Origin: a virus
Lineage: Duplodnaviria > Heunggongvirae > Uroviricota > Caudoviricetes
DNA length: 38,962 bases
IMG/VR virus record: IMGVR_UViG_2703718778_000007
Coordinates: 1 to 38,962 of that record
Strand: one strand, 5' to 3'
Made by a program: the position numbers and the translations under genes
The notes under the pieces: generated by a model
What the model saw: only the letters and a program-made list of their open reading frames with translations
The model's database searches: none
What the model was told of the DNA's origin: nothing
Part shown: piece after piece, positions 2,742 to 9,314 of the stretch
How positions within the stretch are numbered: the stretch's first letter is position 1
How the letters are laid out: each line of letters opens with the position of its first letter

Positions 2742-3374
2742 TTAGCCACGGTTTACCTCCTGCGGCGGTTCCGGTAGCGGCATCCAGTGAGTTGCTTGCT
2801 CAATACCATTACCCGGCTTAATCGTTGCATCTCCGCGCCGAAAGGTGCTTCCGGTATAGCGTGCGGAGCATATTAGCGGTTCAACCAGAGAGCTATCGAA
2901 ATTCACCGAAATAAGCACGTTCTGGCCCTTTTCAGGCATTCGCTCACTACAGCTTATCCAACCATCCTTAATGCAATTACCTTGACTCTGAAGCATAGCG
3001 GCACGACAGGCGTTCCAGCCAGCTGTTCGCCCAAGCGCGTAAACTTCAGATGGCTCAAGATAATCAATGTCATTCCCGTCCTCATCGTCGTTCTCAGGTA
3101 ATGCAGCAGGTACTACCGGTACTGGCGGGGCGGCATAAACAGGAATAACGTCCGCTTGCTCTTTATTGCTTTCATCCGTTAAAGCCCAGAATAATTTCCC
3201 GGCCGGATGTTTGAAAATATAAGCAACTGGTTTTACTTCCAGCGATGCCAGCTCCAACTTGAACGCCTGAAGCTCAATGGCACTGTTGGTATCCAGTCCA
3301 AACGGTAATTCATCACGATTGGCTTCGTATTCAGCGATAGTTTGCTTCAGCCATTCTTTGGTTAGTTCAGCCAT
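2742..3374 (-). CDS. Phage protein with C-terminal DUF551-like domain
   Basis: Internal ATG at 3374 preceded by AAGGGGAA, 4 nt after upstream stop; C-terminal motif W..HWMPLPEPP typical of DUF551. Confidence 0.6.
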   Translation of the reverse strand: MAELTKEWLKQTIAEYEANRDELPFGLDTNSAIELQAFKLELASLEVKPVAYIFKHPAGKLFWALTDESNKEQADVIPVYAAPPVPVVPAALPENDDEDGNDIDYLEPSEVYALGRTAGWNACRAAMLQSQGNCIKDGWISCSERMPEKGQNVLISVNFDSSLVEPLICSARYTGSTFRRGDATIKPGNGIEQATHWMPLPEPPQEVNRG

Positions 3375-6610: not shown

Positions 6611-7081
6611 CTAATAAAATACCCAATTTTCTGTTTCTTGGTTGTGTCCAAAGTTATATTCAATATCTGGTGTTGATGTATCAATATTCTTCATCCCATC
6701 AACAAGAGTTGATACAACAGCCAAATCTTGTTTGATTCTCATTAAATGGTACTTCTTCCGGCGCAATAAACTTTCAATGGCAAGTTTCTTCGTTGGGAAT
6801 GCAAAAGATCTTTCTGCATTTTTTGCTACTTTCTTAATTGCATATCTATTTCTCCTTTGTTTCCATTCCTGTAACCACTGATTTGGTGCTGGTTTAAAAT
6901 TAACAATCCAATGCGCAGGAACCAACCATGCATAATGCTCTGTCTGATGAAAAGCTATATATTGAAGTGCGAATATTTTTATCCCATCTTCTTCAACTGT
7001 CGCCTGGAATCTCCAGAAAACAGGCATTCCATCATGTTCAGTTTCTGATTCAGGAAAAGGTACGCTCCATGATTTTGTCAT
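6611..7081 (-). CDS. Hypothetical AT-rich moron protein (156 aa) directly downstream of N
   Basis: Intact ORF; segment 6600-7090 is clearly more AT-rich than flanking phage DNA; followed by a 9-bp-stem hairpin at 6570-6597. Confidence 0.55.
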   Translation of the reverse strand: MTKSWSVPFPESETEHDGMPVFWRFQATVEEDGIKIFALQYIAFHQTEHYAWLVPAHWIVNFKPAPNQWLQEWKQRRNRYAIKKVAKNAERSFAFPTKKLAIESLLRRKKYHLMRIKQDLAVVSTLVDGMKNIDTSTPDIEYNFGHNQETENWVFY

Positions 7082-7089
7082 ATCTCACC

Positions 7090-7389
7090 TCAAATAAGTG
7101 GTTTGCTGCCTAATTTCATTTTCTGGCGACCAACACAAGTCACACCCATTTCACTGCGTGGCTTGCGGTAGTAAATACGGTTCTGTTTACGCTCGACTTC
7201 TTCTGCCTTCTTGCAGCGAAGGCTTCCGAGTGATGCTGCTTTATCTGCTCTGACGCAACCAGAGAGCTTTAGCGCAATTTTTCGTGCCAATCGCTGTTCT
7301 TGCATTGCCTGTTCACGTTGAGCCTGTCTGCGTGCTCTGCGGCGATTTCTGGCGTTATCGTCAGCCAGATATGTAATGACTACTGTCAT
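7090..7389 (-). CDS. N: Antitermination protein N (lambda-type)
   Basis: Arg-rich motif NARNRRRARRQAQREQ near N-terminus; C-terminus RIYYRKPRSEMGVTCVGRQKMKLGSKPLI aligns with lambda N C-terminus; RBS GAGGT. Confidence 0.75.
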   Translation of the reverse strand: MTVVITYLADDNARNRRRARRQAQREQAMQEQRLARKIALKLSGCVRADKAASLGSLRCKKAEEVERKQNRIYYRKPRSEMGVTCVGRQKMKLGSKPLI

Positions 7390-7445
7390 GTTGACCTCAG
7401 ATGAAACAACTTTGGAATTGATAGTGATTGCAAAGTGGTTTCTGG

Positions 7446-7464
7446 CCCCTCGAACTGAGGGGCA
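7446..7464 (-). promoter_or_regulatory. Stable hairpin in the N leader (possible RNase III/translation control element)
   Basis: GCCCCTC-AGTTC-GAGGGGC, 7-bp GC stem about 55 nt upstream of the N start. Confidence 0.3.
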
Positions 7465-7949
7465 GAAAGAGCATCTCGCCACCTAATAGGTCGATGCTCG
7501 GATCGAGAGATTTAATTAACCTCGGTTTTGAAGTTATGCATTCACATAAATCCTCCTGTTGCATGTGCAGCATTGGCTGTGTTTGGCGGCTGCATTTCGC
7601 CTATGGAATTGACTTTGGCGGTGACGCGCCGGGTGCTTATCTTCCGGTTGCCGTCGTGCAGCTGCACTTCACGTCACCCCAAAGCCAACTACTCTTTGAC
7701 TCACACTCTCGCAGTGAGCGCGCCCATGCCATTGAGTCTCTGCCGCTTCATCGCCGCTGATAACCGGTGCGCGTCTGGCATTCGCGCTGCTTTACCGGAG
7801 CTACTTTTAATATATTGACCTTAACCCGATGCTAAGCAGGCTCGCTCAATGACGACTCAGGGCAGTATCATTACTGCTGCATTGCCTTTCGGCTGCGGTC
7901 TAACCGCGTTAGTGCACCATTACGGCACCTCCTGTTTGGTTAAACTCAG

Positions 7950-7991
7950 TTCCCGCATTTCGGCGGGACAATCCCATCAATGTTAAAGAGC
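7950..7991 (-). promoter_or_regulatory. nutL (boxA GGCTCTTTAACA + boxB hairpin)
   Basis: Minus strand carries the same boxB TCCCGCCGAAATGCGGGAA found at nutR, preceded by a boxA-like element. Confidence 0.6.
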
Positions 7992-8039
7992 CTGCCAATC
8001 TGTTCCGTTTGGCTACCAGCGTCCTGCTGATGGCTAAAG

Positions 8040-8079
8040 AATACTGTAGGTATTTTATTGTGTAAATACCCAAGGTATT
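8040..8079. promoter_or_regulatory. oL operators and pL promoter
   Basis: Two 15-bp palindromes AATACTGTAGGTATT (8040-8054) and AATACCCAAGGTATT (8065-8079), 25 bp apart, matching the oR sites; leftward TTTACA-17-TATTCT overlaps them. Confidence 0.5.
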
Positions 8080-8211
8080 TATTTTTGATGAAATAATGAT
8101 AAGCAAATGAATACAAAGGATATTTATTTTTTTCGGTGTCTGCTTGTTCAGTGCTTTTTATGCGGGATATGTGAAGTGGATCCCGATAGCTATTGCTGCC
8201 GGGATTATAGG

Positions 8212-8580
8212 TTAGTCAGCGAAGGTTAAGACGAGAATTACCTTAATGATGTCTGCTACAACAGACACGGCCATAGATAAACCAAAGACGATCCAAGCCA
8301 CAGTGATGTCTTCACTACCATCGTATAGAGTTCCGTAATCACTGGTGTAAGGCGTAAATGTCGCGCCTTGATACAATAGGTATAAGCTTGATCCATAGAG
8401 GATAAATGCAGATATCCCTTGTATTGCTATGATCACAAGAATCATGAAACGAGCTGATCTATGCGCCCAAGCCTGGCTTATTTTTTCTGATAGAGATTTC
8501 GCAATAAAAGCATGCGCTAAGCCGTAAATTGTCGAGATTGCCAACATCCCAAAAAAGCTTGCTATAGCGGTTCCAACCAT
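8212..8580 (-). CDS. Small integral membrane protein (about 122 aa, 3 predicted TM helices) co-transcribed with cI
   Basis: First ATG at 8580, 17 nt after the cI stop with RBS AAGGGG; TTG at 8601 overlaps the cI stop; three long hydrophobic stretches. Confidence 0.6.
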   Translation of the reverse strand: MVGTAIASFFGMLAISTIYGLAHAFIAKSLSEKISQAWAHRSARFMILVIIAIQGISAFILYGSSLYLLYQGATFTPYTSDYGTLYDGSEDITVAWIVFGLSMAVSVVADIIKVILVLTFAD

Positions 8581-8597
8581 AATCGCCCCTTGCGTGA

Positions 8598-9314
8598 TCA
8601 AACCAGCCTTAGTTTTGTCTCAATTGCAACGCCTATAATCTTGCAGTTTCCATTGATTGGCACGAGAGGCCATGCAGGATTAAGTCCCTTGAGGTATTTA
8701 TTTCCGCCGTCGATTATCAGCTTCTTGAATGTTGCTTCGTTAGAGTCAGAAAGTTTTGCTATGACCAAGCTGCCGTTGATCGCCTCCCTTCCGGTATCGA
8801 AAAGAACGAATGTTCCCTCTGGAATGCTTAACCCAACCGGTGCCGTCATTGAATCACCTTCCACTTTAAGCCAGAACGCATTACCTTGAATATGCGCGTC
8901 AGACTCAAGCCAAACATCTATGTCTTTAATGGTGTATGGTTCGCATGCTTCACACCACGAGCCAGCCTGGATACTGCTTAACACCGGATACCTCTTTCCT
9001 GCTCTGTATTCCCCTGCATACCTTACGTTGGCATCGCTCTTAAGGCTTTCTGCCTGTTCTGCAACCTTGGCAGCAATTGACTGGCTAAAATCAGCAATTG
9101 AGACTTGCAACAAACGTGCAAAACCAGATGCGACCTCAACGTTTAGCGCGTTTCTGCCATTAAGATAATGCCCTACCGCTCCTTGGGTGATACCCAGTTC
9201 ATCAGCGATTGAGTATTGGGTTATTCCCAATTCTTTCTTTTTTGACTCATACAAAGCCTTAAGCCGCTTAGCGTCTTCGAGCTGTTCTGTCGTCAGTGAT
9301 TTTTTATTTTCCAT
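8598..9314 (-). CDS. cI: CI-type prophage repressor (HTH + S24 LexA-like autopeptidase domain)
   Basis: N-terminus LTTEQLEDAKRLKALYESKKKELGITQ aligns with lambda CI; candidate Ala-Gly cleavage site (RYAGEY) and GDSM...K motifs. Confidence 0.85.
   Translation of the reverse strand: MENKKSLTTEQLEDAKRLKALYESKKKELGITQYSIADELGITQGAVGHYLNGRNALNVEVASGFARLLQVSIADFSQSIAAKVAEQAESLKSDANVRYAGEYRAGKRYPVLSSIQAGSWCEACEPYTIKDIDVWLESDAHIQGNAFWLKVEGDSMTAPVGLSIPEGTFVLFDTGREAINGSLVIAKLSDSNEATFKKLIIDGGNKYLKGLNPAWPLVPINGNCKIIGVAIETKLRLV

Follow-up and report, generated by a model that had tools for sequence, protein, structure and literature searches.

The long N leader of a lambdoid prophage is a mosaic of folded RNA modules, one of them a predicted structured RNA with a ribosome-loading cassette that recurs in phages and plasmids of Enterobacterales

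In lambda-type N leaders the promoter pL is followed by nutL, a long hairpin near the ribosome-binding site (RBS) of N, and the N gene, and in lambda itself about 150 nucleotides (nt) lie between nutL and N. Other elements that bear comparison with the locus considered here are the bar minigenes of lambda, which consist of a Shine-Dalgarno (SD) sequence and a two-codon open reading frame (ORF) transcribed from pL and are toxic in hosts deficient in peptidyl-tRNA hydrolase; the ribosome-dependent 5' stabilizers of mRNA, such as STAB-SD in cryIIIA of Bacillus, the ermC leader and the 5' untranslated region of E. coli ompA; the put RNAs of phage HK022, two stem-loops within about 70 nt that replace N; and the ROOL and GOLLD RNAs, which are about 500-800 nt long and found mostly outside Enterobacterales. 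The put RNAs act in cis in antitermination (PMC9378689), while ROOL and GOLLD are large phage-borne structured RNAs without known function (PMC12286853); the small RNAs (sRNAs) of E. coli prophages include Pas (PasA-D; bioRxiv 10.64898/2026.05.13.724894), svsR (PMC12803456) and StxS (PMC7547250). Here we analyse the leftward leader in a 38,962-nt stretch of caudoviral DNA (IMG/VR record IMGVR_UViG_2703718778_000007, positions 1 to 38,962; hereafter the window), which holds the immunity region of a lambdoid prophage with its leftward operon on the minus strand. As in lambda, pL, nutL, a long hairpin near the N RBS and N occur in this order, but nutL and N stand 561 nt apart, and the extra length consists of two modules with ribosome-binding cassettes of their own. 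The leader, transcribed from pL as one RNA and devoid of a conserved ORF, is a mosaic of three conserved folded RNA modules: after nutL come module A, a core hairpin of the type found in phage HK620, and module B, followed by the N RBS. We hold with high confidence the joint description of a mosaic leader, of module A as a genuine structured-RNA family and of its 5' edge as a ribosome-loading cassette.

The region is collinear with HK620, in which the OL sites, pL, nutL and N are annotated, and we carried this annotation onto the window through an alignment (A1) of the window with HK620, HK140 and a Stx2c phage. The principal features of the leader are:

8066-8038, minus strand: pL promoter, TTTACA-17-TATTCT, matching HK620 pL in A1; source of the whole leader transcript
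7992-7951, minus strand: nutL, from the HK620 annotation, the segment being identical in A1
7991-7983, minus strand: boxA GCTCTTTAA, part of nutL
7967-7952, minus strand: boxB hairpin CCCGCCGAAATGCGGG, part of nutL
7942-7693, minus strand: module A, matched by the covariance model R1 described below (250 bits, E=7.7e-69, model positions 1-249)
7698-7609, minus strand: core N-leader hairpin, with a long stem (7688-7672 with 7626-7609) that encloses two small hairpins
7608-7405, minus strand: module B, the second inserted leader module, about 204 nt
within 7399-7390, minus strand: SD sequence of N, GAGG, upstream of the N ATG
7389 (ATG) to 7090 (stop), minus strand: N gene, 99 amino acids (aa), of the H-19B/phage 21 type, with the start codon annotated for HK620 N

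An earlier note on this DNA, made from the sequence alone, had remarked on the unusual length of the N leader and proposed comparing it with those of related prophages. The comparison bears the remark out and reveals the mosaic layout: in HK620, which has the same nutL and N, the two are separated by about 107 nt, and A1 shows the window to have the same sequence with two extra blocks. The module A block (7948-7699) is an insertion relative to both HK620 and HK140 that is common to the Stx2c phage, and the module B block (7608-7405) is common to HK140 and absent from HK620; no phage record covering at least 80% of the leader was found. The N start at 7389 named in the note is the very ATG annotated in HK620, and its nutL was the right site placed one base off, at 7950-7991 rather than the 7951-7992 that the HK620 annotation gives. 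Neither the mosaic layout, nor the two cassettes of SD sequence and mini-ORF, nor the membership of module A in a large family that extends beyond N leaders had formed part of that note. Together the two modules push nutL about 450 nt further from the N start than in HK620 without adding a gene; one might speculate that the added distance loosens the coupling of the NUT complex to N translation.

We derived the structure of module A by folding one of its subtypes and by eye, and cast it as the covariance model R1, with 249 positions and 41 base pairs. In the window its elements are:

7907-7700, minus strand: structured part of module A, with about ten helices in about 210 nt
7907-7895, minus strand: P1, from the model and the alignments
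7893-7884, minus strand: P2, with a GAAA loop in the window (GNRA in the family), among the best supported helices
7880-7862, minus strand: P3, in which all 6 pairs covary
7861-7859 with 7821-7819, minus strand: P4, a long-range helix (CCU with AGG; CCY/RGG in the family, C-G 66, U-A 32) enclosing P5 and P6
7855-7842, minus strand: P5, inside P4
7840-7825, minus strand: P6, inside P4 (U-G 56, A-U 33, G-C 9)
7801-7756, minus strand: P7/P8/P9 block, preceded by an A-rich linker, with P8 and P9 among the best supported helices
7736-7723, minus strand: CUC/GRG hairpin with an invariant loop of the AAGGGCAU type and U-A, U-G and C-G variants in its stem
7718-7700, minus strand: P10, among the best supported helices

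In the model alignment A4, which comprises 100 diverse members of the family scoring 145-270 bits, pairing is seen in 95.1% of the cells, a figure that falls to 31-37% once the partners are shifted by 1-3 columns (slid controls); compensatory double changes affect 28 of the 41 pairs (310 cells), and the covariation score is 0.297 against 0.02-0.04 for the slid partners, with none of 500 shuffles reaching the observed values. Because A4 is fitted to the model, the count was repeated on a structure-blind MAFFT alignment (A3), where 92.1% of the cells are paired (29-39% slid), double changes occur in 20 of the 41 pairs and the score is 0.21 against at most 0.05. RNAalifold run on the raw MAFFT alignment, in which the variable hairpins are misaligned, returned three helices only. 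The alignments contain hairpins that have changed in sequence while retaining their pairing, and many of the pairs are G-U, which would be A-C mismatches on the other strand, so that the transcribed strand is the minus strand, in the sense of pL. Alongside the helices, several unpaired stretches are near-invariant, namely GAGUC, GGUAAAGCAG, CACCGGUUAU-N-AGCGGC and CUCAAGGGCAUG, and this also holds in copies that were found by an unrelated pattern. Two further pairings that we considered, a long-range GAG/CUC helix and a switch between P1 and AGCGGC, received no support from covariation, the local CUC/GAG hairpin fitting better than the former. This comparative evidence shows module A to be a genuine family of structured RNAs under selection for RNA structure. 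The earlier note had offered a structured RNA as one possibility for the segment, and this proposal gains weight from the strong covariation of module A and from the folding stability of the other two modules (core, z=-4.62; module B, z=-4.26).

The Rfam scan that the note had suggested, in contrast, produced no relevant match. With the 4227 models of Rfam 15 there was none at gathering score in the entire window, the sole match at E<=10 in 7300-8120 was a spurious snoRNA outside module A, and at E<=1 ten other module A loci yielded nothing on the element and only genuine neighbouring tRNAs. ARAGORN detected no tRNA or tmRNA gene in 103 copies, which together with the Rfam tRNA and tmRNA models rules out a tRNA- or tmRNA-like character, and neither similarity nor complementarity of module A to the E. 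coli 16S, 23S and 5S rRNAs rose above shuffles. A literature search by sequence strings and keywords, in a library that is incomplete, such that an earlier description may exist elsewhere, likewise found no account of it. As far as these searches reach, module A falls into no known family.

We then looked at how widely the element is distributed, in collections of phages, plasmids and E. coli genomes on which its taxonomic range rests. The window contains exactly one copy (nhmmer E=9e-67), which combines a full-length match to R1 with a cassette of SD sequence and mini-ORF, the two features by which we define full members. Module A occurs in 13 phage records (Escherichia, Klebsiella, Hafnia and Providencia; 79-98% identity), where it is covered by no annotation or by doubtful ORFs only; in 117 of the 5426 complete genomes of E. 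coli, where it is invariably chromosomal and annotated as nothing or as 'hypothetical protein', including a copy in strain JNE082640 that is 100% identical to that of the window; and on 20 plasmids from nine genera of Enterobacterales. In IMG/VR, each of two independent sequence patterns matched at least 120 contigs, and after removal of duplicates there are at least 145 distinct full-length copies, about 80-90% identical and set in unrelated flanks. A 15-base pattern scan of genome contigs gave only chance matches among the 120 listed. Module A carries no terminal inverted repeats, the only relevant repeat being a direct repeat around module B, and the marks of a MITE or IS-type mobile DNA, terminal inverted repeats with a target-site duplication, are wanting. 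A partial copy in phage mEp237 (JQ182730.1, 40369-40459) retains only the 5' ~90 nt, that is, a terminator-type flank, the SD sequence, the mini-ORF and P1-P3, suggesting that truncated or chimeric derivatives of module A exist.

These results bear on the possibilities that the leader is a functionless, decayed insertion or that it hides a small protein gene, the first of which the earlier note had itself raised. The note had found no credible ORF here, and in this it was correct even if its statement that all minus-strand ORFs are of 26 aa or fewer was not: a 58-aa ATG ORF lies at 7573-7397 and a 41-aa GTG ORF at 7667-7542, both on the minus strand. These two ORFs, and annotated hypothetical proteins such as HK140_048, the antisense ORFs of Klebsiella phage RothC and an antisense 129-aa coding sequence (CDS) in E. 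coli NU14, are what a hidden gene could appeal to. The 58-aa frame, however, has one to four in-frame stops in allelic copies, in HK620 the 41-aa frame shrinks to 25 aa and ends in another tail, the Stx2c phage lacks it, and the plus-strand ORFs span mosaic junctions; none of these leader ORFs has a Pfam match, and across the 100 aligned members of the module A family no reading frame is conserved on either strand. A protein-coding gene conserved in relatives, which the note had named as the observation that would overturn its reading, is thus not what the comparison reveals. As for decay, the extra length does consist of insertions relative to HK620, but modules A and B are both intact, with sharp boundaries, and retain 70-100% identity in many different genomes, and the compensatory base-pair changes show selection on RNA structure. 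We consider decay or a hidden gene hardly credible. The 'hypothetical protein' CDSs that lie over module A, module B and the core, often antisense (RothC, L007:2416-2752; HK140_048, L002:1403-1528; NU14, L311:521-910), are probably false gene calls given that their frames are not conserved on comparison, and a covariance model for module A would clear such recurrent spurious calls from phage and E. coli annotation.

The second defining trait of module A is a minute translation unit at its 5' edge, which in the window consists of:

7933-7928, minus strand: SD sequence AGGAGG of module A, read from the sequence
7920-7909, minus strand: mini-ORF ATG GTG CAC TAA (MVH-stop), seven nucleotides after AGGAGG, its stop ending 1 nt before P1

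The start codon is ATG in 123 of the 145 distinct copies, one to three sense codons are present in 129 (exactly three in 93), an SD-like 4-mer is found in 125, and this 4-mer is combined with an ORF of at most six codons in 122 (84%). In 90 of the 145 copies the stop of the mini-ORF ends 0-1 nt before P1, so that a terminating ribosome must open this helix. The encoded peptides vary (MVH, MKQ, MKH, MHQ, MNQ, M and others), which argues that the act of translation is conserved rather than its product. In about ten copies an ORF from upstream enters the element and ends at the stop of the mini-ORF, with about seven distinct types of C-terminus; to go by their surroundings, spanin genes make up most of them, with one other gene besides, and the SD-like sequence and the start codon are kept in frame (read-in 5' edges are seen at L111, L083, L261, L253, L255 and L307). 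The layout of the bar minigenes, with an SD sequence, a start codon, few sense codons and a stop under a strong phage promoter, is found in both leader cassettes, and in its extreme form in module B, a bare ATG TGA; the bar minigenes stand alone, whereas the one in module A is fused, as a conserved 5' edge, to a large structured RNA and shows no conservation at the codon level. On the evidence available, the fusion of a mini-ORF to a fold of about ten helices has no close precedent.

Contextual information from the flanks of module A reveals that every inspected copy is co-oriented with its flanking genes and that several settings recur. In the first, to which the window belongs, the element lies 56-59 nt after the boxA of nut sites with at least five different boxB hairpins, with the CAAAG...CTTTGGGG hairpin, part of the N leader, coming next. 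In the second, it lies 17-21 nt after the intrinsic terminator that follows a Pfam-confirmed Q gene, and before holin genes, TerB-like genes or tRNAs. In the third, it comes after the lysis cassette and before HNH or terminase genes, sometimes directly after an Acb2/Tad1 gene. A strict scan detected a terminator-like hairpin within about 50 nt downstream, often at 14-19 nt, in 27 of 142 contexts, mostly in copies of the terminator type; tRNA genes adjoin the element in only 5 of 40 late-leader loci. No consistent protein partner emerged, the clusters of flanking ORFs being small and diverse.

On conjugative plasmids, where module A heads transfer operons, the copies are full length (187-241 bits) and keep the mini-ORF:

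L320:3974-4225, L321:3960-4212, L323:3974-4239, L324:~3000-3236 and L327:~2889-3130: module A loci on plasmids of Pectobacterium, Rahnella, Pantoea and Yersinia

In MPF_I plasmids of Rahnella and Pantoea the element is flanked on one side by traI-traJ-traY, an HNH gene and a gene of about 205 aa, and on the other by the type IVb pilus genes; in a Pectobacterium plasmid, the only such case, a Pfam-confirmed NusG paralog lies upstream of it and pil genes follow; and in a Yersinia plasmid it precedes a VirB-type type IV secretion operon. A hairpin with a T-tract precedes the element on the Rahnella plasmid, whereas on the Yersinia plasmid a promoter-like site read by eye, TTAGCA-16-TATAGT, lies directly upstream, so that the cassette there would be at the extreme 5' end of the mRNA. 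The sites at which module A is found again and again are heads or junctions of long operons, whose dependence is on N, on Q or, to judge by proximity, on a NusG paralog. Two observations touch on the upstream edge: the hairpin and U-tract before the SD sequence (...TTTGYCGTTTYTGGAGG) are alike in phage late-leader copies (for example, L009 and L316) and the Rahnella plasmid (L321:3930-3985), and as judged from these sequences the upstream terminator may belong to an extended form of module A; and the Rahnella sequence GGCGGAGTTTG loosely resembles an ops site.

In light of this recurrence, the lack of a promoter or terminator of its own in the window and the uniform co-orientation, we tentatively propose, while rating the idea as somewhat short of probable, that module A is a cis-protective, ribosome-loaded leader element for the long operons of mobile elements. 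According to this proposal, the element would be transcribed only after RNA polymerase has passed an antitermination checkpoint; in this prophage the checkpoint would be nutL, in other phages the terminator that follows Q, and on plasmids a terminator-like hairpin, once with the gene for a NusG paralog nearby. A ribosome would then load at the mini-ORF and terminate at the foot of the fold, and, parked there or cycling, it would combine with the compact RNA into an insulating and protective block at the 5' end. The multi-gene transcript would thereby be shielded from decay that depends on the 5' end, from access of Rho, or from both, the outcome being full expression of the long operon downstream. 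The precedent for such a mechanism lies in the 5' stabilizers of mRNA introduced above, in which an RBS without a real gene likewise stands at or near the 5' end of the transcript beside a stable structure; those elements are short and simple, while module A, a putative stabilizer, is large, supported by covariation and exchanged horizontally between phages and plasmids.

Several observations weigh against the cis-protective proposal. About a quarter of the contexts are unclassified, and the distance to the next gene ranges from 23 to more than 400 nt, sometimes with a terminator or tRNAs in between; it follows from this variation that module A does not govern any single start codon downstream. 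N- or Q-modified polymerase already resists Rho and terminators, which makes an anti-Rho role partly redundant, and cargo that simply comes to lie in tolerated non-coding slots would have this distribution too. Folding of module A as a single sequence gives a stability that does not exceed that of shuffles (z=-0.54), with a null result on both strands, so the case for its structure rests on comparative data, and thermodynamics by itself would have overlooked the element; the folding check that the earlier note had recommended therefore came out in favour of the core and module B and not of module A. The complexity of the fold and its invariant unpaired nucleotides exceed what a simple stabilizer needs and suggest a specific partner or catalysis, which keeps alive both the trans-acting and the polymerase- or Rho-directed alternatives discussed below. 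The cis-protective mechanism itself is put forward on sequence comparison.

A more far-reaching version of the cis-protective proposal, which we regard as unlikely, sees in module A a new class of ribosome-engaged leader RNA, an RNA counterpart or partner of antiterminators of the N, Q and RfaH type, in which a ribosome captured at the three-codon mini-ORF and a compact fold would license full-length expression of long operons of mobile elements through anti-Rho or anti-decay action or through coupling of a pioneer ribosome to polymerase, with the cassette being exchanged between phages and conjugative plasmids of Enterobacterales. The leaders of lambdoid early and late operons are among the best-studied regulatory regions, yet an RNA of 250 nt supported by covariation, positioned after nut sites and Q-dependent terminators, matches no Rfam family and no paper found in the search; it is unusual, too, in that it is fused to a mini-ORF in nearly every copy, keeps this mini-ORF even where an upstream gene reads in, and heads pilus and type IV secretion operons. 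These traits point to a portable, general solution to a problem that mobile elements share, namely expressing very long foreign operons in a silencing host; if this is true, translation initiation and RNA structure would be tied to processive transcription in a way that is new and can be tested directly.

The same promoter-proximal and junction sites, which are the places of nut and the Q-dependent terminator and, once, the vicinity of a NusG paralog, are where one would look for an RNA directed at RNA polymerase or Rho and comparable to HK022 put, Bacillus EAR or the RARE of Salmonella mgtCBR, its fold binding the elongation complex or trapping Rho and thereby keeping transcription processive. 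The benefit of such an RNA would be independent of the genes that follow, a sizeable minority of copies (the 27 of 142 contexts) have a further intrinsic terminator within about 50 nt downstream, and the conserved unpaired nucleotides could touch a host protein conserved across Enterobacterales. The likeness to put extends to a structured RNA just downstream of lambdoid early promoters, co-oriented and presumed to act regardless of the following genes; but module A, with about 210 nt and ten or so helices, differs from put in size and structure, coexists with N/nut and Q and carries an SD sequence and mini-ORF, for which the put, EAR and RARE paradigms have no role. We detected no similarity of sequence or model between the two, and a put-type RNA, two stem-loops in about 70 nt of a phage without N/nut, is not what this prophage with its nutL and N contains. 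Moreover, the element is usually placed where a protein antitermination system has already acted, which would render it redundant, and many copies lack a nearby terminator. Direct action on polymerase or Rho is on these grounds quite unlikely.

Alternatively, module A could be a cargo RNA that acts in trans: a stable non-coding RNA carried in the slots of highly transcribed operons and released from them by processing, which would act on a conserved host machine such as the ribosome, an RNase or a defence system, its SD sequence and mini-ORF protecting its own 5' end. In favour of such cargo, module A sits in operons of different timing, early-left and late, with unrelated neighbours, and in classic accessory-gene slots, where tRNAs and an Acb2/Tad1 anti-defence protein are among its neighbours; RNAs that have a specific partner typically show invariant unpaired stretches and a GNRA loop, as module A does; there is no phage or plasmid protein that regularly goes with the element; and in some copies a downstream terminator would define a 3' end. 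With regard to the slot, in E. coli strain 164 (L315:2160-2453), with homologs in L006 and L077, the gene directly upstream of the element is annotated with the Acb2/Tad1 domain of anti-CBASS/anti-Thoeris sponges, and because it occupies that position in the post-lysis context, module A shares a slot with anti-defence cargo. Against a trans-acting role, the element has no promoter of its own and most copies no terminator; its location is strongly biased to sites after antitermination sites or terminators and to the heads of plasmid transfer operons, as opposed to 3' ends or random intergenic sites; and neither complementarity to rRNA above chance nor tRNA or tmRNA features were found. We therefore regard trans-acting cargo as a reading that, for all that it is less than likely, merits serious consideration.

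Like module A, ROOL and GOLLD are complex conserved RNAs of prophages, sometimes beside tRNA genes, but they lack a cassette of SD sequence and mini-ORF and have Rfam models, none of which matches module A. The prophage sRNAs are similarly encoded by lambdoid prophages, some of them near Q or the late terminator; they either are base-pairing RNAs that measure about 74-84 nt and have terminators or are located inside cI, and module A differs from them in size, position, structure and prevalence, such that it can be ruled out as a known prophage sRNA of the Pas or svsR kind on size, place and structure. The independent sRNA gene that the earlier note had entertained finds no support either: pL is the sole sigma-70-like site on the minus strand within 7050-8250 and no terminator-like site was found on the minus strand of the leader region, so that the promoter and Rho-independent terminator of a trans-acting sRNA gene are both missing in the window, and a downstream terminator exists only in a subset of the family.

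The multi-helix fold with its long-range helix, GNRA loop and highly conserved junction nucleotides might also be read as a ligand-sensing riboswitch or a self-processing ribozyme in the leader, and in the copies with a downstream terminator the latter could serve as expression platform. Yet no Rfam model matched, whether at E<=10 in the window copy or at E<=1 at the ten other loci; there is no consistent expression platform, nor a tie to any class of metabolic or transport genes; and an RBS upstream of the aptamer reverses the usual layout of a riboswitch. With downstream sequences and distances that vary, unrelated neighbours and an RBS ahead of the fold, the hallmarks of riboswitches are missing, and we judge either a riboswitch or a ribozyme very unlikely.

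Turning to the other two modules, the core hairpin has a stem of about 19 base pairs and a minimum free energy of -38.7 kcal/mol, with none of 200 shuffles as stable, and its inverted repeat was also recovered by a separate repeat search. It is present in HK620, HK140 and the window (A1) and in CUS-3-type prophages (alignment A5); the Stx2c phage has kept only its first ~20 nt, and XH2172 has other sequence at that place. The core supplies a long, near-perfect double-stranded stem between nutL and the N SD sequence, which in HK620 it directly adjoins, the place that the RNase III hairpin has in the lambda N leader. In view of this shared position, we treat the core as the functional counterpart of the lambda hairpin: by analogy it is a candidate RNase III-type site, probably one that keeps N translation under control of the RNase III type. 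Compared with known N leaders, the core represents no more than a common variation on the theme.

Module B displays the following features:

7557-7552, minus strand: SD sequence AGGAGG of module B, read from the sequence
7547-7542, minus strand: start-stop ATG TGA, four nucleotides after AGGAGG
7499-7469, minus strand: long hairpin GAGCATC...GATGCTC, read from the sequence
7463-7445, minus strand: GC hairpin GCCCCTC/GAGGGGC, read from the sequence
7612-7601 and 7421-7410, minus strand: direct repeat TCAATTCCAWAG, 11 of 12 positions identical, bracketing module B, from a repeat search

The GC hairpin is that of 7 bp which the earlier note had placed about 55 nt before N; it lies 56 nt upstream of the ATG. 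Module B as a whole is unusually stable against shuffles, as noted above, and is carried by 163 of the 5426 complete E. coli genomes, 159 of which have it in full, in three identity tiers; in phage CUS-3 the only annotation over it is 'bsq5 boundary sequence'. Two allelic forms retain both the long hairpin and the GC hairpin despite changed sequence (A5), the GC hairpin being swapped from GCCCCTC/GAGGGGC to CCCCGTC/GGCGGGG. The possibility that module B and the core are diverged copies of module A was ruled out, all covariance-model scores being negative. Module B is a second portable leader module, less well supported than module A, with the same kind of start-stop cassette, in which the AGGAGG is conserved. 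In passing, we observed that its SD and start-stop sequence GGAGGATTTATGTGA resembles the 5' cassette of one subfamily of module A, for example GGAGGATTTATGTAA in L074 and L267.

Phage mEp213 (L005:1372-3129) has two N genes of different types in one leftward operon, with a remnant boxB and module A before the second, HK620-type N; judging from the sequence, this phage would appear to be a recombinant with a duplicated N-leader unit. The product of the N gene in the window gives a weak match to the Pfam N_peptide family (E=8e-4), under the curated cut-off. Upstream of the leader, the gene order on the minus strand is cI, a 129-aa membrane ORF, pL, nutL and N:

9314-8598, minus strand: cI, with Peptidase_S24 and HTH domains (Pfam)
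8212-8601, minus strand: 129-aa predicted membrane protein between cI and pL, without a Pfam match

This ORF occupies the slot of hkaS in HK620 and of rexAB in the Hafnia phage yong1, and it may be an exclusion gene expressed in the lysogen.

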